This document shows, one piece after another, positions 29,311-58,381 of a DNA stretch of 64,000 nucleotides; positions within the stretch are counted from its first letter, which is position 1, and each line of letters opens with the position of its first letter. Source of the stretch: Alphaproteobacteria bacterium (lineage in GTDB: Bacteria; Pseudomonadota; Alphaproteobacteria; Bin95). Both the position numbers and the translations under genes were made by a program. Under the pieces are notes generated by a model. The model did no database searches and was not told the origin of the DNA. It saw only the letters and a list, made by a program, of their open reading frames with translations. The stretch is from positions 448,001 through 512,000 of the forward strand of contig OZ219788.1 in the NCBI GenBank assembly GCA_964291285.2. The letters are read 5' to 3'.

Positions 29311-30051
29311 TCATGGCAACCCCCTCTCGTGGAAGCTGACCGAGCCGGTCGGCGTGACGATCAGATGGTCGAGCAGCGTGACCTCGATGGTCTTCAGCGC
29401 GTCGCGGAGGCGGTCGGTCATGGCGATGTCGGCTCTCGATGGTTCCGGGTTGCCGGACGGGTGGTTGTGGACCGCGATGACCGCGCTGGCCTGAAGCTCC
29501 AGGCAGCGGATGCAAACCTCCCGGGGATAGACCGGAGTGTGGCAGACGGAGCCCTTCTGGAGGCGCTCGTCGGCAATGAGGAGATTGTTGCGGTTCAGGT
29601 ACAGCAGCCTGAACTCCTCGACCTCGCGGTGGCCGGCGAGGGTGCGGCAGTACTCGATCACCCTGTCGTAGCCGGCGAGGGACGGGCGCGGGGTGTCGGG
29701 CATTTCGGCCCGCGCCATGCGGATGGCGAGCGCTTCGGCGGCCTTGAGGGCGGCGATGGCGTCTTCAGACAGGCCCGGCACGGTGTGCAGGCGGTCCGGC
29801 CGTGCTGCGAGCGCGCGCGGCGCCGTGCCGAAGGTGTCCAGCAATGCGCGGGCAAGCGCCCCGGCATCGTCCACCGGCGGGCGCCCGGAGAGCAGCAGTT
29901 CGAGCAGGTCGCGGTCGTCGACCGCCTCGCGCCCGGCGCGGAGGAAACGGCGCTGGAGCCGGCGGCGGTCGGCGGTCTTGCGGGCCGAGGCCGGCGCCGC
30001 AGGCATGTCGTAAAGCGGCATGTCGTCGAAACCCGTCGCGGAATCGGGCAT
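29311..30051 (-). CDS. radC: RadC-family JAB-domain protein
   Basis: DRDLLELLL, EEFRLLYL, VYPREV, HNHPSGNPEPSRAD, LLDHLIV. Confidence 0.92.
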   Translation of the reverse strand: MPDSATGFDDMPLYDMPAAPASARKTADRRRLQRRFLRAGREAVDDRDLLELLLSGRPPVDDAGALARALLDTFGTAPRALAARPDRLHTVPGLSEDAIAALKAAEALAIRMARAEMPDTPRPSLAGYDRVIEYCRTLAGHREVEEFRLLYLNRNNLLIADERLQKGSVCHTPVYPREVCIRCLELQASAVIAVHNHPSGNPEPSRADIAMTDRLRDALKTIEVTLLDHLIVTPTGSVSFHERGLP

Positions 30052-30326
30052 GGCGATGTCCTCCATGGGAGTGGAACCGAAGCGCCCCGCAGGGTCAGCG
30101 GGCAGCGGCTTCCGCCGCCGGGCGGGTCGACCGCGACCCTGCCGTCGCGGACGGTGACCGTCACGGTGCGGCCGGTCGGCATCGGCAGGTCGGTCCACAC
30201 GGCGATGGCGCGTTTCTGCGCCGCGTCGCCGGGGCCCTGCGGAGCGGTCCCCGAGCGTGTCGGCCTCGACCGTGACGGTGTTGCAGCAGTGCGCGTTGTA
30301 GCCGACCTGCACGGTCCGGGGCCGGC

Positions 30327-34577: not shown

Positions 34578-34909
34578 GCCAGTCTCCATGGAGGGTTGCG
34601 GACGGTCGGCGCGGGCGGCCCACTCCGGCTGCCCCGCGCCTGCCCGGACCGCCGCCCCGCTCCGGCTCCGGGCGGTGCGGTCCGGCGGGCGCCGGCGCCG
34701 GATACGGGCCGACGGTGCGGTGCGGCGGTATCGGAAACGGCGGCAGACGGCGCGCGGCCGGAAGTGGTCCGGCCGGCGCTGCTGCGGGCGGGGAGCGGCG
34801 GTCAGCCCCGCGTCACGGGGTCGGATGCGCAGGCGGCCGGCAGCGCCGGGGGCCGCCGGCAGACGAAGGCGCCGTGGAGGGTCGGGAAGCGGCGCGCCGC
34901 CGTCGGAGG

Positions 34910-36268: not shown

Positions 36269-37160
36269 CACGCGGCCTCCCGCGCCGGGGAGACCTCCGC
36301 CGCGAAATATCCCGCGAACCTCTCCGCCAGCGCATCCGCGTCGCGCTTCACCCGCGCGCGGGCGACCGGATCGAAACTCTTCGACGGCCTGAGCGCGTCC
36401 GGCTCGACGCCGGCGATCTTCTCCTTCACCTGCCCGCAGAGCCGGGCGAGTTCGTCGTCGCCGAAGATATTCAGCCGCGGCACGATGTCGACAAGGTCGC
36501 GGATGTTGCCGATCATCGAGTCCCGGAACACCAGCGGCTTGCCCTCGCCGTCCTCCCGCAGGCGTTCGGAGACCCGCTCCACGGCCTCGCCGAGGCGCCG
36601 GTAGAGGTCGCCCACCGCATCGTGCAGCCGCTCCTCCACCTGGCTCTCGATGTCGCGCTTCACCCGGTCGGTGTCGTCGGAGGCGAGCTTCGCCATGAAG
36701 TGGTCGGCACCGGGACGATCCGCCAGCGCAGGCCGAACCTGTCCCGGAGGTCTTCCTTCGAGGGATAGTCCCCGATGCGGAACAGCTTGCCGAGGTCGAG
36801 CCGGGCCTTTTCGATATTGTCGTCATAGTCCTCGATGAAGCGGGCGCGCTCGCGCACCATGCGCTCGCGCAAGCCGTCCATCAGCCCGGTGTAGCGCTCG
36901 TGGTTGGCGACGGGGAGCAGCCGGCTCCCCCGGTCGTCCCAGGGCAGGGTCTGGGCGTCGTGGGCCGCGCGCGCCGCGCTGACGGTGGCGTTGATGGCGG
37001 CGAAGGCGGCCCTGGGCAGCAGGCACTTGTTGTAGCGCCCGGCGCTGACGCTCGCCTCGTGGTGGACGGCGACATGGGTGCTGGCCTGCCGGTCATGGAG
37101 CCGGCCCGACCAGGCGGCGATGCGCAGGCTGACCAGCATGGCGTCGTGGCTGAGGTTCAT
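36268..37160 (-). pseudogene. DUF3150-like protein, frameshifted near 36705
   Basis: Two abutting frames: MNLSHDAMLVSLRI...WRIVPVP and DHFMAKLASDD...EAA; TGATG coupling to the vWA gene. Confidence 0.7.
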
Positions 37161-39883: not shown

Positions 39884-41791
39884 CTATGGAATCGCTTCCG
39901 AACCCATATCGGTTGGTAAGGGCTCCAAGGTCTGCACGATCTCCTCCAGAATATCGAATACCTTTTCAAAGTGCCGAAAGTCTTGGTCCGTGCCTTCGTT
40001 ACGTAGCCAATCGCAGAGATTTCTTTTCTCGTCCTTATTTACACTCCAACATTCTGGAACTTGCTCTTGCCGTCCTCTAATGGTTCTGGCATGAGATGAG
40101 GCGATATCTATAAATTTCGGGTGATGTTTCCGAGCCCTCTCCAAAGTTGTCCTATCAAAAAGATTTTCGACTCCTTTCTTTATGGGATGATTTTGGAAGT
40201 AAGGCATTTTCCTTTTGTAGATGCTGGCTTCCTTGTCTTCCCTGTCTTGGCTTTCCGGATCATGCAGCAAGATTATCGTCTTTTCAGACAATGTGCCAAA
40301 ATTTACAAGCTTTTTTAAGCTCGTCCACATCATCTTCAGGTTTCCATTACCCCCAGAGCATTCAATTTCGAATTTTTCCAGGACATCATTTTTTCCAAGG
40401 AACGTTGCCGCACTCCTAAGGTAATCCCGATCTGTTTCACCTTCGACGATTATCATCAAATGTTGTGCATTTTCAACCAAATACCGAACCTCATTTGAAA
40501 ATCTTGTAGTGTCCTTATACGCCTGAAATGCTTGATCGAACTCGTCAAACTCCTCTGGAGAGATGCGAGAGCCGCTCGGAAGGTCGTAGATCTCGAATCC
40601 GTCGTCTCCAAACACCTTTGCCATTCCGAGGGCAAACAACACCGAATGCGTAGTCATTACAAACTGAATTTGAGGAAACATCCGAATCAGTGTCGGGAGT
40701 ATATCGTGCTGATGTCGTGCATGAAGATGCAGGTCAACCTCATCAACTACTACAACCCCTTTCACGTTTTCGATCGAAGTAAAAGGCATATTCCGCGCTT
40801 CCCTGAGATCAAAATCCCTCAGTATGGAAAAAAATAGTGTTAACAGAGTCATCTCTCCGCTGGACAGCTGGAAGAGATTGGGGACCAATGGCTGCTGATC
40901 GCCCTCCAAGCTTATGACTCGATTGTGTCTCCCGCCGATGCCAAACCGAAGATTTCTCTTTGCAGCCAATTCTGGCATAACGGCACGCAAGACTTCCAGT
41001 ACCGAATTGTACATATTTGTTGCATCGCCTTGATACCCAAGAAACAGGGGAAGCGTTGTAGTTTGCTTCTGCTCCTTATCCGAAGTAGCGGGAAGGGCAA
41101 TGGGAAAGTTGCCCGAGTGTATTTCGAAAGCTGCACGGTCATAGACAACGTCATACAACCAATCGTGGATGTCTCGAAGCGGCGAGTGAGCGATCAATCG
41201 ACGTCGAGTTTCTCCTTTCAGGCGAGAGCCCTGTGTATAATGTGGCTTGGCGCGTAGATTGCCCTCATTCAGCCAAGCTGGTTCTTCAGTACGATTGGAT
41301 GGAAAATAGAGTAAACAATTTTCTGATATTATGTTTTTTACGGCCGTGCTGTGTGAAGGATCCAGTATGTTGGATTTGAAGTGATCCATTTCTTCGTTAT
41401 CGAAGTGAGCTTCCCAAGCATCAAACCCGGGATTGCCGTCTGTCATCGGTGCTTGGGTATACTCTCCTTTTGGCTTTCTCAGGCGGAGTTCTTGAATAAA
41501 ATATTCAGGACGAAAGTCACACCTAGCATAGTAATATTCGGCTTCAACGGAGATGTAGGAGCTGCTGCGCAGCTTGAATACCCTGCCGGCATCCAATTCT
41601 CTCGAGTCCGGATAAACGCTGTCCTTGGCCATCACCATGGCATTGACTATGTGGGAAAGGACTATGGTCTTGCCGGAGCCGTTTTCGCCAACAAGCAGAA
41701 CGGGTTTCGGGCGATCTCCGTCGAACGGGAAGTGGAGGTCCAGATTCCGGAGCGGGCCGTAGTTCGCCAGCTGAAGCCGTGTCAGGTACAT
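39884..41791 (-). CDS. ABC-ATPase + TOPRIM (OLD-like) ATP-dependent nuclease
   Basis: GENGSGKT, LSSGE, VVVDEVDLHLH, TTHS; IIVEGETD, LLHDPE, GVENLF; markedly lower GC. Confidence 0.85.
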   Translation of the reverse strand: MYLTRLQLANYGPLRNLDLHFPFDGDRPKPVLLVGENGSGKTIVLSHIVNAMVMAKDSVYPDSRELDAGRVFKLRSSSYISVEAEYYYARCDFRPEYFIQELRLRKPKGEYTQAPMTDGNPGFDAWEAHFDNEEMDHFKSNILDPSHSTAVKNIISENCLLYFPSNRTEEPAWLNEGNLRAKPHYTQGSRLKGETRRRLIAHSPLRDIHDWLYDVVYDRAAFEIHSGNFPIALPATSDKEQKQTTTLPLFLGYQGDATNMYNSVLEVLRAVMPELAAKRNLRFGIGGRHNRVISLEGDQQPLVPNLFQLSSGEMTLLTLFFSILRDFDLREARNMPFTSIENVKGVVVVDEVDLHLHARHQHDILPTLIRMFPQIQFVMTTHSVLFALGMAKVFGDDGFEIYDLPSGSRISPEEFDEFDQAFQAYKDTTRFSNEVRYLVENAQHLMIIVEGETDRDYLRSAATFLGKNDVLEKFEIECSGGNGNLKMMWTSLKKLVNFGTLSEKTIILLHDPESQDREDKEASIYKRKMPYFQNHPIKKGVENLFDRTTLERARKHHPKFIDIASSHARTIRGRQEQVPECWSVNKDEKRNLCDWLRNEGTDQDFRHFEKVFDILEEIVQTLEPLPTDMGSEAIP

Positions 41792-42608: not shown

Positions 42609-43790
42609 TCATCTGAATCTAAAGTTCGTGGCATAAGTTTTGTTCGACGCGGAGACAGAAGCGCTTGACGGCGGCGAGGATTTCGTCAGCTGATTTGGTC
42701 CATTTGAAGGGCTTGGGATTTTCGTTGTGGGTTTCGATGAAGGCCCGGATGTCGGTTTCGAGTTGCAGGGTCGAGCGGTGGACGCCGCGTTGCAACTGCT
42801 TGCGGGTCAGTTCGGCGAACCAGCGCTCGACCTGGTTGAGCCACGAGGCGGATGTCGGCGTGAAGTGGACGTGCCAGTGCGGCCGCCGGGCCAGCCAGGC
42901 TTTGACCGCGGCGGTCTTGTGGGTGGCGTAGTTGTCCATGACGATGTGGATGTCGAGCCCGTCCGGGACATTGCGGTCGATCACCTTGAGGAAGTCGAGG
43001 AACTCCCTGGCCCGGTGGCGGCGATAGCACTTGGCGATCACCGCACCGGTGGCGATGTCGAGCGCCGCGAACAGCGAGGTCGTGCCGTTGCGCTTGTAAT
43101 CGTGGGTGCGCCGCTCAGGGATGCCGGGCAGCATCGGCAGGACCGGCTGGGTGCGGTCGAGGGCCTGGATCCGGCTCTTTTCGTCGACGCAGAGCACCAG
43201 CGCGCGGTCCGGCGGCGAGAGGTAGAGGCCGACAATGTCGCGGACCTTGTCCACGAAGTGCGGATCGGCCGACAGCTTGAACGTCTCAGCCCGGTGCGGC
43301 TGCAGGCCGAACGCGCCCCAGAGGCGCCAGATCGACGTGTGCGACAGCTTCGCCTCCTTCGCCATCGAGCGCAGCGACCAGTGGGTCGCGTCCGCAGGCG
43401 TCGAGGTGAGCGTGCGCTCGATCACTTCCGCCACTTTCTCGTCCGCGATGCTCCGCGGGCGCCCCGGACGGGGCTCGTCCGAAAGCCCCTCGATGCGGTT
43501 CTTGACGAAACGCCTGCGCCACTTGCCGACGGTGTGCTCGTGCATGCCGAGTTCTGCGGCTACCGCCTTGTTGCCCAGCCCGTCAGCGCAACGCAGGATC
43601 ATGCGGCAGCGATCCGACAGCGAGCGCGCCACACGGTGACGCCGAACCTGCGCTTCCAGAAACGACCGTTCCTCATCGCTCAAGACCAAGGCCGCCAGCG
43701 GCCGTCCCGTACCGCGCCCCATCGAGATGACCTCCTTTGTCCGACCCGGAAGACCATCCTACAATGAACTCTACTTCAGTGCCAGGTGAC
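42608..43790 (-). mobile_element. IS630-family element
   Basis: Imperfect IR GTCATCTGAATCTAAAGT / GTCACCTGGCACTGAAGT, TA on both flanks. Confidence 0.88.
42619..43722 (-). CDS. IS630-family transposase
   Basis: RPGRP, THWS, VDEKS, MDNYATHK, FTPTSASWLNQVERWF. Confidence 0.95.
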   Translation of the reverse strand: MGRGTGRPLAALVLSDEERSFLEAQVRRHRVARSLSDRCRMILRCADGLGNKAVAAELGMHEHTVGKWRRRFVKNRIEGLSDEPRPGRPRSIADEKVAEVIERTLTSTPADATHWSLRSMAKEAKLSHTSIWRLWGAFGLQPHRAETFKLSADPHFVDKVRDIVGLYLSPPDRALVLCVDEKSRIQALDRTQPVLPMLPGIPERRTHDYKRNGTTSLFAALDIATGAVIAKCYRRHRAREFLDFLKVIDRNVPDGLDIHIVMDNYATHKTAAVKAWLARRPHWHVHFTPTSASWLNQVERWFAELTRKQLQRGVHRSTLQLETDIRAFIETHNENPKPFKWTKSADEILAAVKRFCLRVEQNLCHEL

Positions 43791-43792
43791 TA

Positions 43793-44629
43793 GGTCGTGT
43801 ACCCATAAGGGGTTTCTTCTTCAGCGCAGCTGTGATTCAAGCTCCCAACATCAGGGAGCGAGGACATGGGCCGGTACGATCTGACGGACTTCGAATGGCG
43901 GGTGATCAAGCCGTTGCTGCCGAACAAGACCCGTGGGGTGCCGCGGGTTGACGACCGGCGGGTGTTGAACGGCATTCTGTGGGTGCTTCGCGCGGGGGCG
44001 CCGTGGCGAGACCTGCCGGAGCACTACGGGCCTTGTACGACCTGCTACAACCGGTTCAACCGCTGGCGCAAGAAGGGCATCTGGGATCAGTTGATGGATG
44101 CGGTGGTGGAGGCTCACGACGGCAATGTGCAGATGATCGACAGTTCGAGCGTCCGGGTTCACCAGCATGCGGCGGGATCAAAAAAGGGGGTCCGGATCGT
44201 TGCATGGGCCGTTCCCGTGGCGGACTGACCACGAAGATCCACGCCGTGTCGGACGTGAGCGGCCTGCCGGTCCGCTATGACCTCAGCCCTGGCCAGGCGC
44301 ACGACACCACGGCCGCCGGTGCCATGCTGGCGACCCTGCCGCCCGACAGTTTCCTCATCGCCGACAAGGCCTATGACGCCAAATGGATCCGTGACCTGAT
44401 CGAGCAACACGATGCCGTCCCGATCATCCCCGACCGCGAAGGCGCGAAGACCAGGCACGCTTTCTCCAAACCCTTGTATAAATTGCGAAACCGGATCGAA
44501 CGCGCCTTCAACAAACTCAAGCAGTTCCGCCGCATCGCCACCCGATACGAAAAGCTCGCGGCCAACTTCCTCGCCATGATCAAGATCGCTACTGTCAGGC
44601 TCTGGCTACGCGCTTATGAGTCCACGGCC
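43793..44629 (+). mobile_element. IS5-family (IS427 group) element
   Basis: IR GGTCGTGTACCCATAAG / CTTATGAGTCCACGGCC, TA flanks. Confidence 0.88.
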
Positions 44630-44632
44630 TAA
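43866..44632 (+). CDS. IS5-family transposase, two ORFs joined by a probable -1 frameshift
   Basis: DLTDFEW, PWRDLP, IDSS; slippery A6G5 near 44180; GRSRGGLTTKIH, ADKAYD, IERAFNKLKQFRRIATRYEK. Confidence 0.9.
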
Positions 44633-44738
44633 TCTTCAAAAGCGATTCCCTTGGCCCAGCTACCCCCATATCTTGTGTTGGGCGAGTGTTTCTCCTCAGT
44701 ATGCTCGGTTTCAATAATAACCAAGGGGATTGCGGAAC

Positions 44739-45896
44739 ATGGCCATCAAACCACCTGATCAGGGCTTCATCTTCTGGCCCGTCGGCACGGGCGACAGCAC
44801 GACCATTCGAGTAACAGAAACGGTTTACCTTCAAATCGACCTTCGGCACATGGCCAAGGCGGGAAACCGCAGCGACCCCGCCTGGCCGGTCATCGACGAG
44901 CTCATACGTATCCTTCCGAGACTCAGCGGCACGCCATACCTGTCGGTGTTCGGACTTAGCCATCCCGATCTCGACCATTGCCAGGGCTTCGAGGAGTTGA
45001 AACGCCGCGTCATCGTCTCCGAACTCTGGATGTCGCCGCGCACCTTTCGCGAATTCATGGAGGGCGACGACCTTTGCGACGACGCACAAGCCTTTCACGA
45101 TGAGGCCATGCGTCGCGTCCAAGCCGCTATCCGGGCGGGCGGCGACCCCGGCCGGGGTAACCGCATTCGCATCATCGGCTACGACGACCTTCTGTGCGAA
45201 CGCGAGTTTCGTGGCTTCCCCGCGCAGTTCCTGACCATTCCCGGTAAGACCATTACGACACTGGACGGTGAGGATCTCTCCAATCGGTTCGAGGCGTTTG
45301 TCCACGCCCCGTTTCGCGAGGACAGCTTCGGTGACCGCAACGACTGCAGCCTCGCCTTCCAGGTCTCGCTCTACAATGGCAACCACGCTGGCCGGGCACT
45401 GCTCATGGGGGACCTCAGCTATCCCGTCATCCGGCGAATCTTCCACCGAAGTATCCGCACGACACTCGCCTGGAATGTGCTGCTCGCCCCGCATCATTGC
45501 TCGAAGTCCGCCATGTACTGGAAGGAAGAGGGGGACAGCGACGAGACCCTAAAGGAGCATATCGTTCGCGAGATCGCTGCCGCAGCCCTCAACCCGGGAC
45601 ATGTCGTCTCGAGTTCCGAACCTGTGCCGACACGCAACGACCCGGGCGACAACCCACCTCACGCCAAGGCGAAGAGACAGTACGAACGCATCGTCGCCAA
45701 CGCCTTCCTGTGCACCCACGAACACCCGAACCGCAAGAATCCCAAGCCGATCATCTTCGAGGTCGACCGGAACGGTTTCGCATATGTTGGCGACACACAA
45801 TCGAGCAGCTCCATGAGCGAGGTGCTGAAGGCTGTCGGCGGCGTCGCCGCGTCGCCGCCTGCCGTCGCGGTCGGATTCGGTCGTGGCAATAAGTGA
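44739..45896 (+). CDS. Metallo-beta-lactamase-fold (ComEC-like) hydrolase
   Basis: VGTGDS, SHPDLDHCQG, NDCSL, LMGD, APHHCSK; C-terminus AVGFGRGNK. Confidence 0.88.
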   Translation: MAIKPPDQGFIFWPVGTGDSTTIRVTETVYLQIDLRHMAKAGNRSDPAWPVIDELIRILPRLSGTPYLSVFGLSHPDLDHCQGFEELKRRVIVSELWMSPRTFREFMEGDDLCDDAQAFHDEAMRRVQAAIRAGGDPGRGNRIRIIGYDDLLCEREFRGFPAQFLTIPGKTITTLDGEDLSNRFEAFVHAPFREDSFGDRNDCSLAFQVSLYNGNHAGRALLMGDLSYPVIRRIFHRSIRTTLAWNVLLAPHHCSKSAMYWKEEGDSDETLKEHIVREIAAAALNPGHVVSSSEPVPTRNDPGDNPPHAKAKRQYERIVANAFLCTHEHPNRKNPKPIIFEVDRNGFAYVGDTQSSSSMSEVLKAVGGVAASPPAVAVGFGRGNK

Positions 45897-48800
45897 AGGG
45901 CAACGGATTGCCCTCACCCAACTCCGGCGTATCGCCAATACGCACCGATCTCCCATCCGGATCGTCGGTATCGACGATGACCCGGCTCCCGGCGCTTATC
46001 TGAACGTCGATATCTCGCTCGACTGCACGCACTACCCGCGTGTCGAGGGAGGCCTTCCGCTGCACGACCGAGAAGGCATCACGCTTTCGGTGCCGGCGGA
46101 TTTTCCATTCAGTTCGCCGTCGGTCGACACCCCCCATTCCCGGTTCCACGGCTTCGGCCATGTGCAGTGGGGAACCCGTCTCTGCGTTTATCTGTCCACC
46201 GAGACCCAGTGGATCCCCTCCCAAGGCATGTTCGGGTTCTTGGCGCAGATCGACGAGTGGTTTCGACGCGGAGCGCGAAACGAGCTCGACGATCCCGAGG
46301 GACCCCTGCACCCGCCGGTCACCTACCCGGTTGCCACAACTACGATCTGCGTCAACGCCGACACCCCGGCTCGTGATACCTGGCCATGGTTCGGCGCCGC
46401 CACCCTCCATGAGCCCAAACCGGCCCTTCTCGAAGTCCAGGCGTGGATCCCCCTGCATGCGCTCCCCGACCACATGCCGTTTGCGCCGACCGTGCTGCTG
46501 AACTTCGAGCTTCCGTTCGAGTACCCGCGCAAAGTACGATACCTTTTCGACTACCTGGAGGCCAAGGGACGTCTGGGCTACCGCTTCCTTGCCCACATGA
46601 TGGTCGCTTCCGAGCGGATCCCCGATAGCACCTCACTCTACATCGGCATCGGTGCGCCGTCGCGCGGCATCGCTGGCGACCCCGCACAACGAAACCAGCA
46701 CCTCACCTTCTGGGAAATTGAGCCGGGGGACGTCGCCAAGCTGCGCGCCGCATCCATCGCCTGCCAATTCAGCAACCGCTACAAAGGACAGGACACTCCC
46801 GCTGCCATACAGGCATTGAGCGACACCATCCTCGGCACCTTGTTTACCTGGAGGAAGGAAGCCCGTGTACGATGGTGTCATGTGATTGAGAACCGGCCCG
46901 AAGTCATCACTCGGCGCGACGAGGGCACATCGATGGACTGGTTTCGCGGCAAGCGCGTTGCGCTCTGGGGCTGCGGGGCGATCGGCGGGCTCATCGCCGA
47001 ACATCTCGTACGCGCCGGTGTGTCCCAACTCAAGCTCTTCGATCGAGGCCGTGTCGCTCCCAGTCTGCTGATACGGCAGAATTTCTCCGCACTCGACGCC
47101 AATGAGCCCAAGGCCGCGGCGCTTGCCGGGCGTCTGCAATCCATCGCCCCCGGACTTCAGGTCACGACCCGGTCCGAGGACCTCATCTCGCACACCCTCG
47201 CCGAACCGGACTGGGACGCGGATGCCGACCTCATCATCGACGCGACCGCGTCCCTGCAGGTGCGCAGCAAGCTCGAGGCGCTGCTCAAGGAGCACGAGCG
47301 CCAGGCTCCCATTGCGACCTTGATGATCAGCGCCACCGCCCGCCAAGCGGTTGCGGTGCTCGCTCCAACCGGATACCGCGCCGGCCCCCTCGACGCGCTT
47401 CGCCGTCTCGGCATCGCCGCCATCGCGCGGGACTGGCTGAGCGACTGGTCCGAAGCCTTCTGGACCCAGGGGGCCATCGACGGCCTCCGCCAACCCGAGC
47501 CCGGCTGCTCCAATCCGACCTTCGTGGCGTCGCATACCGATGTCGCCGCGCTCTCTGCCCAAGCCCTCAACGCTCTCGCCCAAATCCTCGCCGAACCGGA
47601 CGATGCAGCCAGCGGTCTTCTCATTTCGTGCTCTCCCCATCGTCGCGAGCACAGGTTCCGCTTTCGACCCGACATGCGCTGGATCGCCGATGGAATCGAC
47701 TTCCGCATGTCCATGAACGCCTGGCGCGACATGACGGGCTGGGTCCGCGCCGGCGCCCGTGAACGCTCCGCCGAGCACGAGACCGGCGGCCTGCTGTTCG
47801 GCGAGTTGGACGAGACCCTCGGAATCGCGTGGATTACCAACGTCAGCGGCCCCCCGCGCGACAGCACCTTCTCTCCCGAGGGCTTCGTTTGCGGAACGCA
47901 CGGCACGAGGGAGCTGTGCGAGGACTACCGCGCGCGCACCGACGGTATCGTTCGCTACATCGGCACCTGGCATTCCCATCCGGTCGGTAGTGCCCAACCC
48001 AGCTTCACCGACTACCTGGGCATCACCGACATCTTTACAGCGGCTCCTGATGACGGCGCCCATCATTTGATGGCGATCGTCGGCCACGCGGTCCGTACGC
48101 AACCGGAACTCGGAGTCTACACATTCCAGAAACAGAAACTCGCCGCGCTTGATACCGAAACCGAGCTGGCCCTTTCGGTCCGCGGCGGCATCACCACTCC
48201 GCCTCCCGTCGCGGCGCTCGACAAGGTGATCGGTCTGGCACTCTCTGGCGGCGGATCACGCGCCGTTGCGTTTCACCTTGGCGCCTTGCGCGCGCTCGAA
48301 GACCTGAACTTGCTCAATGAGGTCGACGTGATCTCCGGCGTGTCGGGTGGGGCCGTCATGACCGGGAGGCTCGGCTATACAGAAGCACCGTTCGTCGACA
48401 TAGATCGCAACATCGTCCAGTTCCTTCGCCGGGGCCTGGTAGTGCCGGGACTCGTGAAACTCATCCATCCCGCGCGCGCTGCGCCCCTTGTATGGAACTT
48501 CGTCTTCGTCGCCTTCCCAACGCTCCTTGTCGACCTCCTCACCGGGTCGGCGAGTCGTGTCGCCTCGCTCTTCCCGGGTCTCCGCAGTGCATGCGCCGCG
48601 CTGTCCCGCACCTCGTGGCCCATCCGACGCCGCTACTCGCTAACGCATGTGTTGGCCGACGCCATTGCCGACGTGGTCGGCCCGCAGACATGCGATGCAC
48701 CCACCCGTCAGCACAAGTTGATCGTCTTCAACGCGTGTGAGCTTCGAACCGGCACTGCCTTCCGCATGAGCAACCAACGCTTCGGCTCCTACCGGTATGG

Positions 48801-49383
48801 ATGGGCTCCGGCCAGAGAACTTCGCGTGGCCGACGCCGTCGCAGCCTCGGCCGCTTACCCGCCGTTACTTCCGCCCTTCGACTGGAGAAGGCCGTTCAAA
48901 CGAAACGACAAGACCGAAATGCAGCGGGTCATCGTGACCGATGGCGGCGTTTTCGAGAACCTCGGCATTACCGTCATGGAACCTGACCGGGATCCCCGGA
49001 TCAGCACGATTGACTACGACGTCGACATCATCATTGCAAGCGACGCCGGGATCGGCCAGTTCACCGGCGAGATCCGCCCCCTCAGCTGGCCGAAGCGCAT
49101 GAGCCAAGTCGTCTCCGCAATCATGCGAAAGGTCCAGGACGCGACCAAGCAACGCCTACACGAGCACGCCAAGGCGGAACGCATTGACGGCTTCGTCTAC
49201 GCCGCTCTCGGACAGATCGACCGGCGGGTGCCGCTCAAGCCAGCCAACTGGGTCGACAGAGAAGATGTGATTCGTTATCCGACCGATTTCTCCGCGATGT
49301 CGGAGGTCGACATTCGACGGCTCTCCGGACGAGGTGAGGCCATCATGCGGACTCTGGTCACGCAATACCTTCTGAGTGACTGA
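45883..49383 (+). CDS. E2 - E1(ThiF) - JAB - patatin phospholipase fusion protein
   Basis: E2 HVQ..LC (C101); E1 GCGAIG, RQNF, IDATA, EPGC (C542); JAB ETGG, WHSHP..PSFTD; patatin SGGGSR, GVSGG, DGG. Confidence 0.9.
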   Translation: MAISEGQRIALTQLRRIANTHRSPIRIVGIDDDPAPGAYLNVDISLDCTHYPRVEGGLPLHDREGITLSVPADFPFSSPSVDTPHSRFHGFGHVQWGTRLCVYLSTETQWIPSQGMFGFLAQIDEWFRRGARNELDDPEGPLHPPVTYPVATTTICVNADTPARDTWPWFGAATLHEPKPALLEVQAWIPLHALPDHMPFAPTVLLNFELPFEYPRKVRYLFDYLEAKGRLGYRFLAHMMVASERIPDSTSLYIGIGAPSRGIAGDPAQRNQHLTFWEIEPGDVAKLRAASIACQFSNRYKGQDTPAAIQALSDTILGTLFTWRKEARVRWCHVIENRPEVITRRDEGTSMDWFRGKRVALWGCGAIGGLIAEHLVRAGVSQLKLFDRGRVAPSLLIRQNFSALDANEPKAAALAGRLQSIAPGLQVTTRSEDLISHTLAEPDWDADADLIIDATASLQVRSKLEALLKEHERQAPIATLMISATARQAVAVLAPTGYRAGPLDALRRLGIAAIARDWLSDWSEAFWTQGAIDGLRQPEPGCSNPTFVASHTDVAALSAQALNALAQILAEPDDAASGLLISCSPHRREHRFRFRPDMRWIADGIDFRMSMNAWRDMTGWVRAGARERSAEHETGGLLFGELDETLGIAWITNVSGPPRDSTFSPEGFVCGTHGTRELCEDYRARTDGIVRYIGTWHSHPVGSAQPSFTDYLGITDIFTAAPDDGAHHLMAIVGHAVRTQPELGVYTFQKQKLAALDTETELALSVRGGITTPPPVAALDKVIGLALSGGGSRAVAFHLGALRALEDLNLLNEVDVISGVSGGAVMTGRLGYTEAPFVDIDRNIVQFLRRGLVVPGLVKLIHPARAAPLVWNFVFVAFPTLLVDLLTGSASRVASLFPGLRSACAALSRTSWPIRRRYSLTHVLADAIADVVGPQTCDAPTRQHKLIVFNACELRTGTAFRMSNQRFGSYRYGWAPARELRVADAVAASAAYPPLLPPFDWRRPFKRNDKTEMQRVIVTDGGVFENLGITVMEPDRDPRISTIDYDVDIIIASDAGIGQFTGEIRPLSWPKRMSQVVSAIMRKVQDATKQRLHEHAKAERIDGFVYAALGQIDRRVPLKPANWVDREDVIRYPTDFSAMSEVDIRRLSGRGEAIMRTLVTQYLLSD

Positions 49384-49416
49384 ACTTCAAACACCCTGAC
49401 CTCGTCCAACGTTAAG

Positions 49417-50179
49417 CCGAAGTTCCAGCACCGATCAGACGTATCATTATGAATGTATTGACGTTTGAAAAAATCGGGTGTGTCGCTACTGGGAACGCTA
49501 CAAGCGTACGCCGAGGTAGTCTAGGGCCTTTTTCTGGAGCGGCGTGGGCCGCGTGGTGACCTGGAAGGGTTGGGCGCCCGCAAGGCGGGGCGCCACGGTG
49601 TTGCGGGTGGCGAGATCGTCGATGAGGGTGGAGAAGCTGTGCCACCCCCGGGTGTCCTCTTGGTTGCCGCCTTGGCCCGGGCGCTCGCCGAGACCTCTGC
49701 TGGCGCCACGACGGAAGGGCGCCTTCGGCATCCTCGTCGTCGAACAGCATGGGCTTCAGTTTCTGGCGCATGTGCCATTCGATGTAGTAGGCGAGCATGC
49801 ACAGGAAGACATGGGCCCGGGGCTCGGTGCGGTGGTAGACGGGACGGACCTTCAGATCCACGGTCTTCAGGCTGCGGAAGGCCCGTTCCACCGAACTCAA
49901 CCGCTTGTAGGCGCGCACCGCGCCGGGACCGTCGAGCTCGCTCTGCGGCAGGCTGGTGCGGATCACGTAGAGGCCGTCGAGCCTGGCCTCGGCGGCGATG
50001 GCAGCCTCATCGCGCCCATAGGTGAAGACACCGTCGTCGTCGATGGACCACGTGAAGTGCTTCGCCATCTTGTACTTGCCGATGACCTTCCGCTCCCCGA
50101 TCTTCCCGGCGCTTGTCGCGCCGTGTCGCTGCTGCGATCGGTTCAAGCAGGGCCTCGGTGGCCTCGAGCAGTTCCTGGC
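49417..50179 (-). mobile_element. IS1634-family remnant (decayed 3' part)
   Basis: KYKMAKHF, DGLYVIRTS, YKRLSSVERAFRSLK, RAHVFLCMLAY; frameshifts. Confidence 0.8.
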
Positions 50180-50369
50180 TGTCAATCGGCGTTCAAAGTT
50201 GACCCCGGATCGGCGCGGAAGATTGACCCCTCTTTAGGTTGTCCCGGTAGTCAACAGGAGGGCCCCGCGCGGCTCCGCGTAGCGCCCTGCGATACGTGGA
50301 GCGGAGCCGCGTGGGAGGTGCCTGTTGACCCACCGGGGCAACCGGGCCGCCGGCCTGGGCGTCGCCGGG

Positions 50370-51098
50370 TCACGATCGATGTTTGAAGCGCCAGCTCTGG
50401 TTGCCGGTTTCGACAATGTCGCAATGATGGGTCAGGCGGTCGAGGAGCGCGGTGGTCATCTTGGGATCGCCGAACACGGAGGGCCATTCGCCGAAGGCGA
50501 GGTTTGTGGTGATGATGATCGAGGTGCGCTCGTAGAGCCGGCTCATCAGGTGGAAGAGCAGCTGTCCTCCGGCCTGGGCGAAGGGGAGGTATCCGAGTTC
50601 GTCGAGGACGACGAAGTCGCGCCGGGCGAGCTGCTGGGCGGTACGACCCTGGCGCCCGGCGCGATGCTCGGCCTCAAGCAGATTGACCAGGTCGACGGTG
50701 TTGTAGCAGCGCCCGCGGCAGCCCTGCCGGATGCAGGCGCGCACGATGGCGACGGCAAGATGCGTTTTGCCGCTGCCGGTTCCGCCGACCAGGACGAGAT
50801 TGCGCTTTCCTTCCAGGAAGGCGCCGGTGACCAGTTCCTGGATCAGGGCCTCGTTGACCGGGGAGGCCGCGAAGTCGAAGTCGGCCAGTTCCTTGGCCAT
50901 CGGCAGCCTGGCGCTTGCCATCTGGTATTTGATCGAGCGCGCCGTCTTGTCGGCGATCTCGGCCTGCAGCAGCGCGGCGATGATCTTCGGCGCCGGGTGG
51001 CGGCGCTTGATGGCGTCGGCGAGGATATCGTCCCAGGCGGCGCGCATGCCCGACAGCTTGAGGGCGGTCATCATCGCCAACACGTCATGACGCTCCAT
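50370..51098 (-). CDS. istB: IS21 helper ATPase
   Basis: [31 protein letters not shown]. Confidence 0.93.
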
Positions 51099-52599
51099 GG
51101 CCGGCCTCCCTCAGACGGTCGTAGCGGTGGCAGTCGGCCACTGGCTGATGGCGAAGCTGCAAGCCCTCGGGCGTCGGGATGGGCGGAACCGGCGCCGGCT
51201 GGCGATGCCGGGCGAGGATGTTGAGCACGACGTCGGCGCTGCAGGCGCCATTGGCGAGCGCCTCGGCGCAGGCGGCTTCGACCGCCTCAAGTCCGTCCTC
51301 CAGAACCGCTGTAAGGATCCGGACGATCTGGCGGTCGCCATCGTCATGGCCGGACAGCCGGGCTCGCAGCCGACCGAGGGCATCGGGCAACGGCCAGTCC
51401 TTGAAGGGCGCGCCGTTGCGCAGCGCGCCGGGCTTGCGTGCCAGGATCGGCACGTAGTGCCACGGATCGCAGGTGACCGTGCCGCGCGCGAAGCTCCGGG
51501 GGTGCTCGGCAACCGTCTCGCCGTCCTGGCGGATGACGATCCGGTTGGCGTAGGCCCGCACGTCGACCGGCCGGCCGACGGCGCGGGCGGCAACGCTGTA
51601 GTGGTTGTTGTCGAAGCGCACCAGGCAGGTCTTCGAGACCGCCGACTCAACCGCGTGGAAGCCGTCGAACGGACCGCAATACCCCACCAGGAACGGCTGC
51701 TCCTCCTCGAACACCTCCCACACCGTCTTGCCCGCGATCGACGGATGCGCGCGGCGCTTGGCGTCCCGGATGCAGGCGTCCATGAGCCATGCGTTCAGCT
51801 CATCATGGGAGCGGCCCCGCAGGCGCGGCACGAACAGGCGGCTGCGGGCGTAGCCCACCTGGTTCTCTACCTGGCCCTTCTCCCATGCCGCCCCGGGGGT
51901 GCAGGCCACAGGCTCTACCAGGTGATGGGAGCACATCTCCAGGAAGCGACGGTTGTAGGCGCGCTCCTTGCCGATGAAGATCGCGCTCACCGCCGTCTTC
52001 ATATTGTCGTAGATCCCCCGGCGGCACGACCCGCCGAAGAGCCGGAACGCCCGCTCGTGCGCCTCGAACACCATCTCCTGGCCTTCGCGCGGGAAGACCT
52101 GCACCAGCATCATGCGGCTGTGGCAAAGGCGCATGTGCGCCGCCTTCACCCGGGTCGTCACGCCCGACAGAACCGCGTATTCGTGGCTCCAGTCGAACTG
52201 GTAGGCCTCGCCGGGGGCAAAGCTCAGCGGCACGAACGCCTGCGAAGCCGACAAGGCACGGCGCTCGCGGCGCCAGACGCCGGCATAGCGACGAACGGCG
52301 TCATAACCGCCGGCATAGCCCAACGCCGCCAGCTCCTCATACATCCGCATCAGCGACAGGCGATCCCGGCGAGCCTTCTTCTCGTTCGCCTCCAGATAGC
52401 CGTCCAGAACCTCGATCCACGGACCCGGCTTTGGACGCGACTGAACCTTCCGCCCGTAGCTGAACGACGTCTCTCCGCTCCGGACCGCCTTGCGGACCGT
52501 GTTCCGGGATACCTTCAGCTCCCGGACAAGCTTCTTGATCGGGACCCCCTTGCCCAGATGCTCTCGACGGATACGCGCGATCGTCTCCACAACCAACAT
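51085..52599 (-). CDS. istA: IS21 transposase
   Basis: [42 protein letters not shown]. Confidence 0.93.
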
Positions 52600-52717
52600 C
52601 TCCCACCTCCTCGTCCATCAAGAAAACGAGGCGGCTTCAAAGGACACAGCCCTCGGGGGGTCAATTTTGGAAGCCGATCACCCCCGAACGGGGGTCAATA
52701 TTCCACGCCGAATTACA

Positions 52718-53590
52718 TCGGCAAAACGCATCTGGCCATAAGCCTCGCGATCGCCGCGGCCGAAGCTGGACGGCGCGTCTACTACGGCACGCTCGCAGGG
52801 CTGATCGACTCCCTCACCGAGGCCAAGGCCGCCGGCAACCTGTCCCACCGGCTGCGCGTGCTCACACACCCGGCGCTGCTGGTGGTCGACGAGATCGGCT
52901 ACCTGCCCGTCAACCAGGACGGCGCCGTGCTCTTCTTCCAGCTCATCAACGCCAGGCACGAGAAGGCATCGACCGTGCTGACCTCGAACAAGGGCTTCGA
53001 GGACTGGGGCGGCGTGCTCGGCGACGAGGTCATGGCGGCGGCTCTCATCGACCGCCTGGTCCACCACTGCCACATCGTCAACATCCGGGGGAACTCCTAC
53101 CGGATGCGCGATCATCAGAACCTGCTGCAGTCCGGCTCGGACCGGCGACGCAAGAGGGCCGCCGCGTGATCCCCGCCCGGAGCAAAAACGGCAACGGTGA
53201 CCGCCGCCCGCTATGGATAACCGGGTTGTCGCCGCCAGACTCGCGGCGGTCGCTGCGCCAACCCGGTTACCCAAAGCTCCATCGAGGCCCACACCCCAAG
53301 CACCGTGCCGGGCGAAAGGGATCAAAGACAAAAGTGAGCAATTTTCACTTGCCAAAACCTTCATTGCCGGGCGGGTCGGCCACCCCGTATCATGAAAACA
53401 GGTGCCGGCCGCGCGGGCGGGACTTCGGGCTTTTACGGGGTTGCCTACCGGTCACGGTCCGCAAGACGGGCACCGCAGATGGCGAGTATCGGACGCCTCG
53501 GGAGCAGTGCTCTGGCGGGGAGGGGTTTTTGTGCGCTCAATCCCCAATAATTTTCACGGCAAAATGCGCAATTTTCGGCTGCCATTGACA
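52718..53590 (+). mobile_element. Right-hand remnant of a second IS21 (istB fragment 52718-53169)
   Basis: GKTHLA, VDEIGY, TSNK, IDRLVHH; GCAATTTTC repeats; terminal CATTGACA. Confidence 0.82.
53358..53559 (+). repeat. 202-bp MITE-like element, copy 2, inside the IS21 end
   Basis: Flanked by the direct repeat CAAAA (53353-53357, 53560-53564). Confidence 0.88.
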
Positions 53591-54105: not shown

Positions 54106-55307
<1,202 letters not shown>

Positions 55308-55588: not shown

Positions 55589-58381
55589 TCAGCCCAGGAA
55601 GTCGAAATCGGCCTCGGTCAGCTGCGCCGCCCGAATCCCCTCGACCACGATCGAGAAGGTGTCGGCAGGGTCACCGATCACGGTGTCGTTGCCGCTTTGC
55701 TTGATATCGAGATCGGAGAATTGCAGGCTGCCCCTGATGACGATGATGTCCTGCCCGTCTTCGAAGTCGCGGATGCGGTCGGTTTCGGATTCGTTGTCGA
55801 AAACGAACCGGTCGGCCCCCTTACCGCCCATTAGCGTGTCGGTGCCTTTGCCGCCCACCAGCGTGTCGTCGCCGCTCCCGGCGTAGAGGGTGTCGTCGCC
55901 TCTCCCCCCTCTGAGGATGTCGTCGCCGCCGCCGTAGTCGTTGAGCCAATCGTTGCCGTTCCCGGCGTAGAGGATGTCGTCGCCTGCCCCGCCGTAGAGC
56001 ACATCGCCGCGGCCACTGCCATTGAGGGTGCCGCCGAAGTCGCCGTTGGCAAAGTAGTTGAGTACGCCGGGCCGGACGATGAAGTCGTTTCGATCCAAGG
56101 AGTCTGCCGCAACGTCTACCAGGGTGATCGTGTCGCCGTCGCCGTAGCGGATGACGGCATCGGCACCGTCCTGCTCAATCACCAGCGCCGCAAACCTGCG
56201 AGGGGACACACCAATGATGTCGATCCTGTCGCCTCCTCCGAAGTCGGTAATGGTATCATGCCCGTCTCCCGCTGCGAACCGGAAAGTGTCAGCGCCCCCG
56301 CCGCCCGTCAGCGTGTCGGTTCCGGTGCTGCCGTCGAAGAGATCGCGGCCGTCGCCGCCGTTGAGAATGTCGTCGCCGCCCTCGCCGTAGAGGTCGTCGT
56401 CACCCGAGTCGCCGTTGAGAGTGTCGTTGCCAATCCCGCCGAAGAGATCATCATCGCCGACCCCGCCGTTCAGGTCGTCGTCGCCGCGCCCGCCAGCGAG
56501 GTCGTCGTCGCCCGCGTCGCCGTTGAGGGTGTCGTCGCCTCCGCGTCCGAAGAGCACATCGTCGCCTCCGCCACCGTTCAGGGTGTCGTCCCCGTCGCCG
56601 CTGATGTAACAGTCGACGCCGGACCCACCGTTGAAGGTAACGCCATTGCGGGGCAGCGGGTCCGCGGGCTTGCCCATGTCGAACGGCTCATCGCCCGAGG
56701 TGCCCGGGATCGTGTCCGTGTCCTCGCCGCCATCGTTGCCGGCATTCGGATCGCCGCCATCGTTGCCGGCATTCGGATCGCCGCCATCGTTGCCGGCATT
56801 CGGATCGCCGCCATCGTTGCCGGCATTCGGATCGCCGCCATCGTTGCCGGCATTCGGATCGCCGCCATCGTTGCCGGCATTCGGATCGCCGCCATCGTTG
56901 CCGGCATTCGGATCGCCGCCATCGTTGCCGGCATTCGGATCGCCACCATCGTTGTTGGCATTCGGATCGCCACCATCGTTGTTGGCATTCGGATCGCCAC
57001 CATCGTTGTTGGCATTCGGGTCACCACCGTCGTTGTCGTTATCGAGGGGGTTGTCGTTGTCGTCGTCGCTCGTACTGGCACCGTAGGCGGCCTTTTCGTG
57101 ATTGTCGCCGCCACCGCCAGCGGGCAGGATGAAGTCGTTCGCATCCAGACTGTCTGCCGAGACGCCCGACAGCCTGATCGTGTCGCCGCCGCCGTAGCGA
57201 ATGACGGTATCGGCGCCGTCCTGCTCGATGACCAGTGCCGTGAACCCGCCGGATACGCCGTCGAGGCGAATCCTGTCGCCGGCCCCGAAGTCGGTAATGA
57301 TGTCGGCGCCGTCTCCCGCCTCGAACACGAAGGTGTCGGCGCCCTTGCCGCCCCCCAGCGTGTCATCGCCCGCGCCGCCGCGCAGCGTGTCGGCACCCCT
57401 GGCGCCGCGCAGCGTGTCGTCGCCCGCGCCGCCGTCCAGCGTGTCGTTGCCCTTGCCGCCCCCCAGCGTATCGTCGCCAGCCCCGCCGGTCAGCGTGTCG
57501 GCACCCAGGCCGCCATAGAGGAGGTCGTCGCCGGCCCCGCCGGTCAGCGTGTCGGCGCCCCCGTAGCCACGCAGGGTGTCGGCGCCATCACCACCGGTGA
57601 GCGTGTCCGCGTCCTTGCTACCCTTCAGCACCTCCCCGCCAGAAGGCCCGCCGCTCGAGGCATCATCGTCGCCGTCATCGTTGCCGTCCGGCGGCGCACC
57701 CTGTGCAGGAGCGTCCTCGCCGCCGTCCTCCGGCGAGGCTGCCTCGACGGGAAGGAACCGGAAGTCGTCCGCGCCAAGGGAGGCCGCCGTCACGCCCTCC
57801 AGCTTGATCGTGTCGCCGTCGCCGTAGCGGATGACGGTATGGAAGCCCTTCTGCTCGATCACCAGATCCCCGAAACCGCCGGACACCCCGGCGATCTCGA
57901 TGATGTCGCCAGCCTCGAAATCGCCGATGTAATCGGCCCCGTCGCCGACCGCGAACGCAAAGACGTCATGGCCACTGCCGCCATAGAGCGAGTCCGCGCC
58001 CCGGCCGCCGGTCAGCCTGTCGGCGCCCCGGCCGCCTTCCAGACGGTCGTTGCCCGCACCGCCATCGACCGTGTCGTCCCCGTCGCCGCCATACAGCGTG
58101 TCGTTGTCCGTGCCGCCGTCCAGCGTGTCGTCGCCCGCGCCGCCGTCCAGCACATCGTTGCCAGCACCGCCGTCCAGCGTGTCATCGTCCGAGCTGCCGG
58201 GGTTCATGAGGAGAAAGTCCGCGTCGGCTCCCGGGCTTGCGGTTCCGCCCGTCAGCGTGTCGTCGCCGTCGCCGCCCGTCAGGATGTCGTCGCCGAGGCC
58301 GCCCTTCAGGATGTCATTGCCGACGCCCCCCGTCAGGATGTCGTCGCCAGCGCCGCCGGTCCGGGAAATATCCTGTGTCAT
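55589..58381 (-). CDS. RTX/hemolysin-type Ca2+-binding secreted protein
   Basis: Many GGxGxDxLx nonapeptides in blocks each closed by DxIxDF..DF modules; C-terminal LTEADFDF type I secretion-like end. Confidence 0.92.
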   Translation of the reverse strand: MTQDISRTGGAGDDILTGGVGNDILKGGLGDDILTGGDGDDTLTGGTASPGADADFLLMNPGSSDDDTLDGGAGNDVLDGGAGDDTLDGGTDNDTLYGGDGDDTVDGGAGNDRLEGGRGADRLTGGRGADSLYGGSGHDVFAFAVGDGADYIGDFEAGDIIEIAGVSGGFGDLVIEQKGFHTVIRYGDGDTIKLEGVTAASLGADDFRFLPVEAASPEDGGEDAPAQGAPPDGNDDGDDDASSGGPSGGEVLKGSKDADTLTGGDGADTLRGYGGADTLTGGAGDDLLYGGLGADTLTGGAGDDTLGGGKGNDTLDGGAGDDTLRGARGADTLRGGAGDDTLGGGKGADTFVFEAGDGADIITDFGAGDRIRLDGVSGGFTALVIEQDGADTVIRYGGGDTIRLSGVSADSLDANDFILPAGGGGDNHEKAAYGASTSDDDNDNPLDNDNDGGDPNANNDGGDPNANNDGGDPNANNDGGDPNAGNDGGDPNAGNDGGDPNAGNDGGDPNAGNDGGDPNAGNDGGDPNAGNDGGDPNAGNDGGDPNAGNDGGEDTDTIPGTSGDEPFDMGKPADPLPRNGVTFNGGSGVDCYISGDGDDTLNGGGGDDVLFGRGGDDTLNGDAGDDDLAGGRGDDDLNGGVGDDDLFGGIGNDTLNGDSGDDDLYGEGGDDILNGGDGRDLFDGSTGTDTLTGGGGADTFRFAAGDGHDTITDFGGGDRIDIIGVSPRRFAALVIEQDGADAVIRYGDGDTITLVDVAADSLDRNDFIVRPGVLNYFANGDFGGTLNGSGRGDVLYGGAGDDILYAGNGNDWLNDYGGGDDILRGGRGDDTLYAGSGDDTLVGGKGTDTLMGGKGADRFVFDNESETDRIRDFEDGQDIIVIRGSLQFSDLDIKQSGNDTVIGDPADTFSIVVEGIRAAQLTEADFDFLG
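56724..57020. repeat. 11 x 27-bp coding tandem repeat (GGDPNA[G/N]ND)
   Basis: 8 copies TCGCCGCCATCGTTGCCGGCATTCGGA plus 3 variant copies. Confidence 0.93.

Follow-up and report, generated by a model that had tools for sequence, protein, structure and literature searches.

A 64,000-nucleotide stretch of the genome of an Alphaproteobacteria bacterium (GCA_964291285.2, contig OZ219788.1, 448,001-512,000 of the forward strand; hereafter the window, in whose coordinates all positions are given) carries an intact, mobile two-gene cassette of 4.8 kb, which encodes an enzyme of the metallo-beta-lactamase (MBL) fold, followed by a single long protein composed of E2, E1 and JAB domains and a patatin-like phospholipase. 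The cassette represents a widespread, apparently undescribed patatin-bearing form of the anti-phage system 6A-MBL, and we put at roughly 60% the probability that it is a variant of that system in which a conjugated MBL enzyme acts together with a membrane-directed lipase as second effector. In type II cyclic oligonucleotide-based antiphage signaling systems (CBASS), ubiquitin-like conjugation primes a bacterial immune enzyme. 6A-MBL is the least understood cousin of these systems, and its patatin variant adds a recognisable effector to a cyclase-free system, raising the question of whether the MBL hydrolase generates a signal, or whether conjugation itself controls the effector. An initial annotation of the window, made from the sequence without database searches, had proposed a messenger-free defense in which conjugation or JAB cleavage directly gates a membrane-lytic effector, an interpretation that as a whole is partly supported by the analyses below.

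Domain composition and conservation of the long protein

Four domains of the long protein scored above their Pfam gathering cut-offs, namely Prok-E2_A (aa 38-163, E 1e-18), ThiF (aa 355-470, E 8.9e-19), Prok-JAB (aa 626-715, E 1.4e-07) and Patatin PF01734 (aa 785-1030, E 5.8e-17, 62.9 bits vs a cut-off of 27.7), and PADLOC JAB models matched aa 628-757. Open reading frame (ORF) lists, Pfam and motif positions bore out the initial annotation exactly with respect to a 14-nt overlap of the two genes (45883-45896, same strand), the order of the four domains and every motif residue that it had named (Table 1). All hallmarks of PF01734 are present, i.e. the oxyanion loop G-G-G-x-R, the nucleophile elbow G-x-S-x-G and the catalytic D-G-G.

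When the long protein was compared with the 109 relatives that measure 1100 aa or more and share 54-84% identity with it, C101, G363/G365/G368, C542, H697, H699, S707 and D710 were invariant (109/109), as were G789-G791, S821 and D1020 of the patatin domain, and E633 of the JAMM motif was found in 67/67 family members. Judging from these alignments, the conservation of all catalytic residues goes far beyond chance.

The AlphaFold2 (AF2) model of the long protein reached a mean predicted local distance difference test score (pLDDT) of 82.9 and a predicted template modelling score (pTM) of 0.75. Flexible segments were the loop around C542 (530-546), where low confidence is as expected because the crossover loop with the catalytic Cys is mobile, and the linker at 753-760 (pLDDT <50). 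Its best match among solved structures was Cap2 in the Cap2-CdnD complex (7to3_A, E 4.5e-18), and the patatin part matched the fold of PlpD (5fya, E 3.5e-8).

Inserted into the patatin domain are three modeled helices that form the sole transmembrane-like stretch of the protein: the 19-residue Kyte-Doolittle mean exceeds 1.6 nowhere else in it (1.85 at aa 869), and this hydrophobicity is at least 1.6 in 60/67 family members. A clade-specific insert of this kind would also suit a patatin that is mainly a membrane- or lipid-handling adaptor, which anchors E2-E1-JAB or supplies or removes a lipid acceptor, such that the MBL enzyme becomes conjugated at or onto the membrane in the manner of Atg8-PE (phosphatidylethanolamine). 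The relation of Cap2-type E2-E1 to Atg7, drawn in the Discussion of PMC11601596, and a phosphorylcholine esterase as second-best fold match of the MBL enzyme are in keeping with such a role. We nevertheless consider it quite unlikely, since the Ser-Asp dyad and oxyanion loop are invariant in all 109 relatives, which indicates that hydrolysis itself is under selection, and since a Metallophos domain can take the place of patatin, as would be expected of an effector more than of an anchor. Moreover, we know of no evidence for lipid conjugation in any known bacterial system.

Assignment to the 6A-MBL system

Both proteins passed curated models of NCBIfam release 20. The upstream protein scored 285.5 bits (cut-off 220) against NF058524 ("anti-phage 6A-MBL system MBL-fold protein", equivalog) over positions 1-346 of the 346 in the model, and it is the only copy of its type in the source genome. 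The long protein scored 338.2 bits (cut-off 320) over aa 57-732 against NF058523 ("anti-phage 6A-MBL system cap2_3 protein", equivalog). The gene order, with the MBL gene first, adjacent and co-oriented, was the same at 9/9 genome loci and at 12/15 metagenome loci that had an E2 match and at least 1400 nt of upstream sequence. By these family models, the MBL plus E2-E1-JAB core is the already named anti-phage 6A-MBL system.

The likeness extends to the layout of the operon, in which a specialised MBL-fold protein precedes an E2-E1-JAB triple-module protein, and to the intact catalytic Cys, JAMM and metal residues and the Gly-bearing C-terminal tail of the MBL enzyme. The difference is that the triple-module protein of the window carries an extra 400-aa patatin, beyond the point at which the NF058523 match ends (aa 732). 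Operons of MBL with E2-E1-JAB had been noted previously, as the initial annotation had stated, in row 6a of Table 1 of Iyer et al. 2006 (PMC1779556), a paper in which the word "patatin" does not occur (0 occurrences). A review (PMC13276650) credits van den Berg et al. 2024 with 6A-MBL, a defense found in Pseudomonas aeruginosa, and the methods of a preprint (10.1101/2025.09.30.679545) list the system among "known jumbo phage defense systems". No description of a patatin form was found in the literature searched, a scope that excludes the first description of 6A-MBL and supplements, where patatin-associated subtypes may be listed. An already named architecture was among the outcomes that the initial annotation took as refuting its reading, and this is half the case here: the core is not new (NF058523/NF058524), and candidate novelty is limited to the patatin module, which is apparently undescribed. 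Proteins of this kind are currently annotated merely as "ThiF family adenylyltransferase" or "patatin-like phospholipase".

The MBL-fold enzyme and its C-terminal tail

The upstream ORF gave zero Pfam matches, and was identified as an MBL-fold protein by NCBIfam and by an AF2 model of the MBL fold (pLDDT 85.5), which is well folded over aa 1-353. Residues of the HPDLDH motif, together with H189, D225, H252 and H253, were invariant in 26/26 aligned relatives. The top fold match was the beta-lactamase-like domain of ComEC (9ic4, E 2e-12, TMt 0.73), followed by the phosphorylcholine esterase Pce. By its modeled fold, the enzyme, whose metal site is intact, looks like a ComEC-like phosphodiesterase or nuclease.

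The tail that follows the folded part (aa 354-385) is disordered in the AF2 model (pLDDT <50). It ends in [VIA]GFG plus 2-4 residues in 21/26 aligned relatives and exactly on Gly in 4/26. At 14 further loci the MBL enzyme was Gly-terminal in five and had 1-6 residues beyond the last Gly in nine, and those of the canonical branch among these 14 loci end in HG or AG, with or without 3-6 extra residues. The tail resembles a ubiquitin precursor, and what becomes conjugated, in place of the missing ubiquitin-like protein (Ubl), is by analogy likely to be the MBL enzyme, a point that the initial annotation had missed. This role, with the JAB domain as both maturing and de-conjugating protease, is suggested by the disordered tail, by a cassette without a Ubl gene and by a JAB that is always present. 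In accord with the initial annotation, which had seen no separate Ubl, the conserved cassette holds two genes only and a Ubl gene is absent from it, although no profile search aimed at small Ubl ORFs was made. The conserved Gly-bearing tail (G381) offers a precise handle on conjugation.

Spread of the fusion and association with patatin

The initial annotation had allowed that the fusion might occur only at this locus, or might reflect an artefact. Patatin is fused to E2-E1-JAB in >150 protein clusters. Among the best 120 clusters (90% identity) of the whole-protein search, 54-100% identical to the query, JAB, ThiF and patatin were present in all, and E2 as well except in five proteins of 993-1051 aa. 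The same intact, single-frame gene pair was present at 8/9 genome loci with 71-100% protein identity, the hosts being metagenome-assembled genomes (MAGs) of Alphaproteobacteria, Rhodobacterales, Thiotrichales, Pseudohongiella and Terriglobia. The JAB-patatin junction is also spanned, with no indels, by contigs of two further runs (47776-48786 and 47473-49244), which belong to the same study as the best holder and so do not count as independent of the source. Nothing was found in favor of an artefact of assembly or stop loss in this MAG as the origin of the fusion, an explanation refuted by the single frame at eight of nine genome loci, the junction-spanning contigs, and the presence of four domains (or three, where the N-terminus is truncated) in all 120 best clusters and of fused forms in 38/120 clusters of a second listing.

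That second listing, obtained with an E2-E1-JAB query of the split type, comprised 81 unfused proteins (602-802 aa), 38 patatin-fused proteins and one fused to a Metallophos domain. The last of these (P0351, 1161 aa) joins E2-E1-JAB to a calcineurin-like metallophosphoesterase (PF00149, aa 789-1101) at the position held by patatin in the protein of the window, and for this reason the C-terminal module of E2-E1-JAB proteins appears, at the level of domain architecture, to be swappable and effector-like.

The patatin domain alone found patatins of approximately 360-410 aa as well as JAB-patatin ORFs, at approximately 40-45% identity. A contig scan with JAB-patatin patterns, which is biased toward the query, left 80 metagenome loci that were classed by domain matches and stop-to-stop frames. 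Patatin was fused at seven of these, a separate ORF directly after the JAB ORF at 30 (split), and part of a five-gene operon at nine; five loci had patatin without JAB in at least 1.5 kb upstream, 18 had a JAB protein without downstream patatin, and 11 were cut or other. JAB accordingly accompanies 46/51 patatins with readable upstream sequence (7 fused, 30 adjacent, 9 in five-gene operons), and patatin accompanies this machinery repeatedly as an accessory, usually unfused. In the ten split loci checked, the patatin glycine loop L-S-G-G-G sits shortly after the end of the JAB ORF, with stop-to-stop overlaps of the two frames ranging from -10 to 295 nt (16 nt in L022, 28 nt in L017 and 29 nt in L024), and a Met stands two to three residues ahead of G-L-A-L-S-G-G-G in L017, L022 and L027.

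Split forms were also present on plasmids of cultured bacteria. On pDK1 of Rhodococcus sp. DK17 the order is MBL, E2-E1-JAB, patatin, and on a plasmid of Streptomyces sp. NBC_01220 it is MBL, E2-E1, JAB, patatin; the first gene, annotated as "hypothetical" in both, passed NF058524 with 260 and 268 bits, respectively. The Streptomyces operon (L121:1-890) adjoins TnsA-like and Mu-transposase-C genes, which suggests carriage by a Tn7-like element.

In a quick tree of 51 patatins (53 matches with at least 330 aligned residues, minus L098, a duplicate of the window locus, and L007, which is broken), the family of the window formed one clade with support 100. Fused and split forms intermingled at weak nodes, and the fused label needed 1-3 changes, compatible with a single or a multiple origin of the fusion. 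The same patatin clade occurs in the five-gene operons (L029, L032, L033, L036, L040, L041, L045, L046 and L047), which encode a 176-aa Phd-like/E2-like protein, ThiF (298 aa), JAB (305 aa), a ComEC-like MBL (286 aa) and patatin (400 aa; e.g. L045:3815-8182). These operons are like the window cassette in combining a patatin of this clade (37-45% identical) with E1, JAB and an MBL hydrolase, and differ from it in that every component is a separate gene and that the MBL is shorter and matches TIGR00361 (98.6 bits, below cut-off), not NF058524. On this gene content they constitute a second, independent arrangement of E1, JAB, MBL and patatin, for which we found no name. A shorter paralogue precedes the 176-aa protein, whose N-terminus is Phd-like. 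At L053:2237-11474, where neither E1 nor JAB was detected, a patatin of the same clade has an MBL-fold gene on either side (502 aa and 281 aa), and proteins of 541 aa and 1120 aa without a Pfam match are encoded next to it.

Comparison with CBASS, Bil and Bub

Type II CBASS resembles the cassette in several respects. The E2-E1 has Cap2 as its top fold match (7to3), the JAB is putatively Cap3-like, the lipase has a patatin fold, and a further enzyme has a flexible C-terminus, which here is the probable conjugation substrate. It differs in that an MBL hydrolase stands where CBASS has its cGAS/DncV-like nucleotidyltransferase (CD-NTase), that the equivalents of Cap2, Cap3 and the lipase form one polypeptide, and that the window system has no known messenger. 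At the level of profiles, the long protein matched the PADLOC E1-E2 model PDLC00857 with 256 bits, but reached only 23 bits against the Cap3 equivalog NF050170 (cut-off 200). The match of the patatin domain to the phospholipase effector model of PADLOC was confined to the glycine loop (E 0.002, 15 bits), and its score against an NCBIfam model was 19 bits (cut-off 400); by these scores it is not of the CapV family.

The initial annotation had seen neither a CD-NTase nor a cyclase nearby, and the absence of a CD-NTase extends to the genome: zero SMODS (PF18144) matches were found in the source genome (100% complete), and its three class III cyclase domains sit on other contigs, which together favors a model without a nucleotide messenger.

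In CBASS, CapV is activated by cyclic GMP-AMP (cGAMP). By extension, a conjugation-primed MBL enzyme could make or unmask a small molecule, e.g. a nucleotide or lipid hydrolysis product, that allosterically activates the patatin. The Streptomyces plasmid operon, with the type II CBASS role set and MBL in the place of the cyclase, lends itself to this explanation, as do the separate patatin proteins of the 30 split loci, which is how effectors of diffusible signals are encoded, and the conserved C-terminal region of the patatin (aa 1040-1166), to which no function has been assigned; conjugated proteins are also termed "signaling enzymes" in the text of PMC11601596. Against it stand the hydrolytic nature of MBL folds and the top fold match, which is to a nuclease domain (ComEC). 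Since a separate effector is lacking in canonical 6A-MBL, that role must fall there to the MBL enzyme. In addition, Pfam found no known ligand-sensing domain in the long protein, and the patatin is not a member of the CapV family. On balance we regard signaling of this kind as unlikely.

Bil and Bub systems likewise use E1, E2 and JAB chemistry for defense, and in them, as here, the JAB may pre-process a C-terminal tail. Their beta-grasp Ubl, E1 and E2 are each a protein of their own (PMC11601596), in contrast to the fused enzymes of the window, for which BubCD was only a weak fold match (rank 22).

Proposed mechanism

In the patatin-bearing 6A-MBL variant that we favor, the MBL enzyme would occupy the place held by the CD-NTase in type II CBASS. 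The JAB domain would trim the 2-4 residues after the conserved Gly of the MBL tail, and E1 would adenylate that Gly and relay it in thioester linkage from C542 to C101, after which the MBL enzyme would be ligated to a target, and thereby primed or placed, in a conjugation that the JAB could also reverse. The patatin would act as a second, membrane-directed effector, probably docked by its hydrophobic helical insert. Its activity would be tied to conjugation instead of a nucleotide signal, and the outcome would be abortive infection. A complex prediction for the patatin domain (772-1166) with the MBL enzyme returned "no answer" with a score of 0.00, and weighs neither way.

Several points weigh against this reading. 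All of the evidence is computational, and conjugation of the MBL enzyme, trimming of its tail and coupling of the lipase are all argued by analogy. The last four codons of the MBL gene overlap the downstream start, and tail conservation could partly be a nucleotide-level constraint. The cassette belongs to a divergent 6A-MBL branch, which passes NF058523 by a margin of 18 bits (338 vs 430-673 bits in other genomes) and whose MBL enzyme is 26-29% identical to those of the canonical branch, and anti-phage activity has been reported for canonical 6A-MBL only, as relayed by secondary sources (PMC13276650; 10.1101/2025.09.30.679545). The similarity of the patatin to known defense phospholipase models is only faint, and for that reason the lipase substrate is putative. 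Lastly, an even sample of 401 Pseudomonadota genomes (the source genome included, and with the unpublished G383 among the negatives) contained 10 over the NF058523 cut-off, of which the source has the fused form, G233 the split form, seven have no patatin within 1.5 kb and one is cut. Since most 6A-MBL genomes over the cut-off are without patatin, the patatin form is a minority subtype, and patatin is accessory rather than core.

A more radical version is that the conjugation cycle directly switches on the patatin lipase of the same polypeptide, with no nucleotide messenger and alongside a conjugated ComEC-like nuclease. If true, this would be the first defense with a membrane-lytic effector under the direct control of an E1-E2-JAB machine; we offer it as a tentative minority view. 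The initial annotation had proposed JAB cleavage as one such gate. With 30 split as opposed to seven fused loci among the 80 from metagenomes, the frequency of split forms speaks against cleavage of the JAB-patatin linker in cis as a required gating step. The linker motif VRGG (aa 766-769) was considered as a cleavage site and demoted: the distant fused forms L010 and L013 have lost it by deletion, the model places it with confidence in a beta-strand, and patatin is a separate protein in most relatives. VRGG resembles the tail of ubiquitin, and within the close family the conservation of its G768 and G769 reaches at least 90%, while the surrounding stretch is variable.

With regard to what a lipase might contribute beside a nuclease, one possibility is that it opens a membrane around phage DNA and so gives the nuclease access, which we raise in view of the listing of canonical 6A-MBL among jumbo-phage defenses. 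The different arrangements provide a natural dissection series, from the fused form of the window to the three-gene form of pDK1, the four-gene form of NBC_01220, the five-gene form with a different MBL and the version with a metallophosphoesterase.

Mobility and genomic surroundings

Nucleotide similarity between loci extends from approximately 90-150 nt 5' of the MBL start to the stop of the long gene (blastn; L001 6700-11503, offset 37882), and in related strains the contigs begin to differ at about 44629-44654 on one side and at 49386-49387 on the other. Copies of the cassette in Alpha- and Gammaproteobacteria and Terriglobia share 71-96% identity, whereas their flanks are unrelated. Given these limits of similarity, the moving unit is the 4.8-kb two-gene cassette, which these comparisons mark as horizontally mobile. 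Transposase genes flank it, and the catalytic centres of all four domains are intact amid insertion sequence (IS) fragments, just as the initial annotation had described. Together with genes of the integrative/conjugative-element type (Table 1), the surroundings fit a mobile island.

A position among IS elements and genes for RadC, ParB_N and DUF2201 proteins, along with the copies on plasmids, would also be compatible with a role outside defense, either as a selfish addiction module or in lipid or nucleic-acid housekeeping on mobile elements, and the copy at L007 has been broken by IS and integrase insertions, as befalls any costly cargo. Both proteins, however, pass curated models of an anti-phage system, and the patchy horizontal spread across phyla and the swapping of effector domains are typical of defense genes, which leaves such a role very unlikely.

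The ninth genome locus, L007:3795-16331 from another Alphaproteobacteria MAG, is a decayed cassette with both genes broken, the MBL gene by IS1595 and IS5-type elements, and the long gene by an integrase together with transposases of the IS91 (Y2) and DDE types.

Table 1. Features of the cassette and its surroundings, in window coordinates
Feature	Position	Strand	Details
Mobile two-gene cassette (conserved unit)	44582..49386	+	~4.8 kb; blastn against 8 related genome loci
6A-MBL MBL-fold enzyme gene	44739(ATG)..45896	+	385 aa; alternative TTG start 44730 gives 388 aa
MBL metal-binding motif HPDLDH	44961..44978	+	H75, D77, D79, H80, numbered from ATG
MBL enzyme C-terminal tail, aa 354-385 (disordered)	45798..45893	+	VGFG at 45870-45881, then RGNK
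E2-E1-JAB-patatin gene (Cap2_3-like plus patatin)	45883(GTG)..49383	+	1166 aa
E2 (Prok-E2_A) domain	45994..46371	+	RLCVY 99; catalytic C101 at 46183-46185
E1 (ThiF) adenylation domain and catalytic-Cys loop	46945..47682	+	GCGAIG aa 363-368; PGCSN 540, C542 at 47506-47508
JAB/JAMM metalloprotease domain	47758..48132	+	E633; HSHP 697 (H697, H699); SFTD 707 (S707, D710); Pfam, PADLOC JAB models
JAB-patatin linker, aa 751-782	48133..48228	+	conserved VRGG aa 766-769 (48178-48189)
Patatin-like phospholipase domain	48229..49380	+	GGGSR 789-793; GVSGG 819 (S821); TDGG 1019 (D1020)
Hydrophobic helical insert in patatin domain, aa 853-908	48439..48606	+	helices 853-860, 863-896, 898-908 (model)
RadC-like JAB protein	29311-30954	-	integrative/conjugative-element type
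ParB_N protein	32178-35081	-	967 aa; integrative/conjugative-element type
DUF2201 metallopeptidase/VWA protein	34910-36826	-	integrative/conjugative-element type
DDE_3 transposase	42619-43722
DDE_Tnp_1 transposase	43979-44632
DDE_Tnp_1	49412-50185		weak match
rve/Mu-type transposase and truncated IstB	51085-53169

GC content was 0.59-0.67 across the cassette vs 0.45-0.71 around it. Word depth at 44600-44760 was 6-20x the level of the cassette (runs X1 and X2), several different continuations beginning at 44629-44636, and this segment is the end of a multi-copy IS5-type element that abuts the cassette. A composite transposon was considered and rejected, the only inverted match being one of 36 nt and 83% (43877-43912 vs 55136-55171) inside the coding sequence of an IS5-type transposase. 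Carriage by phages was probed by a scan of viral contigs with the patatin domain (aa 772-1166), which gave 16 pattern matches and no relatives.

Elsewhere in the window, a 635-aa AAA_21/AAA_15 (AbiEii-type/OLD-like) ATPase ORF (39884-41791, minus strand) lies in a patch of low GC content (0.45-0.52 vs 0.6-0.7 around), and may be another defense gene of foreign origin. A 930-aa protein with RTX calcium-binding repeats is encoded at 55589-58381 (minus strand), and its 27-nt periodic repeats correspond to the direct-repeat family D1 at 55812-55993.

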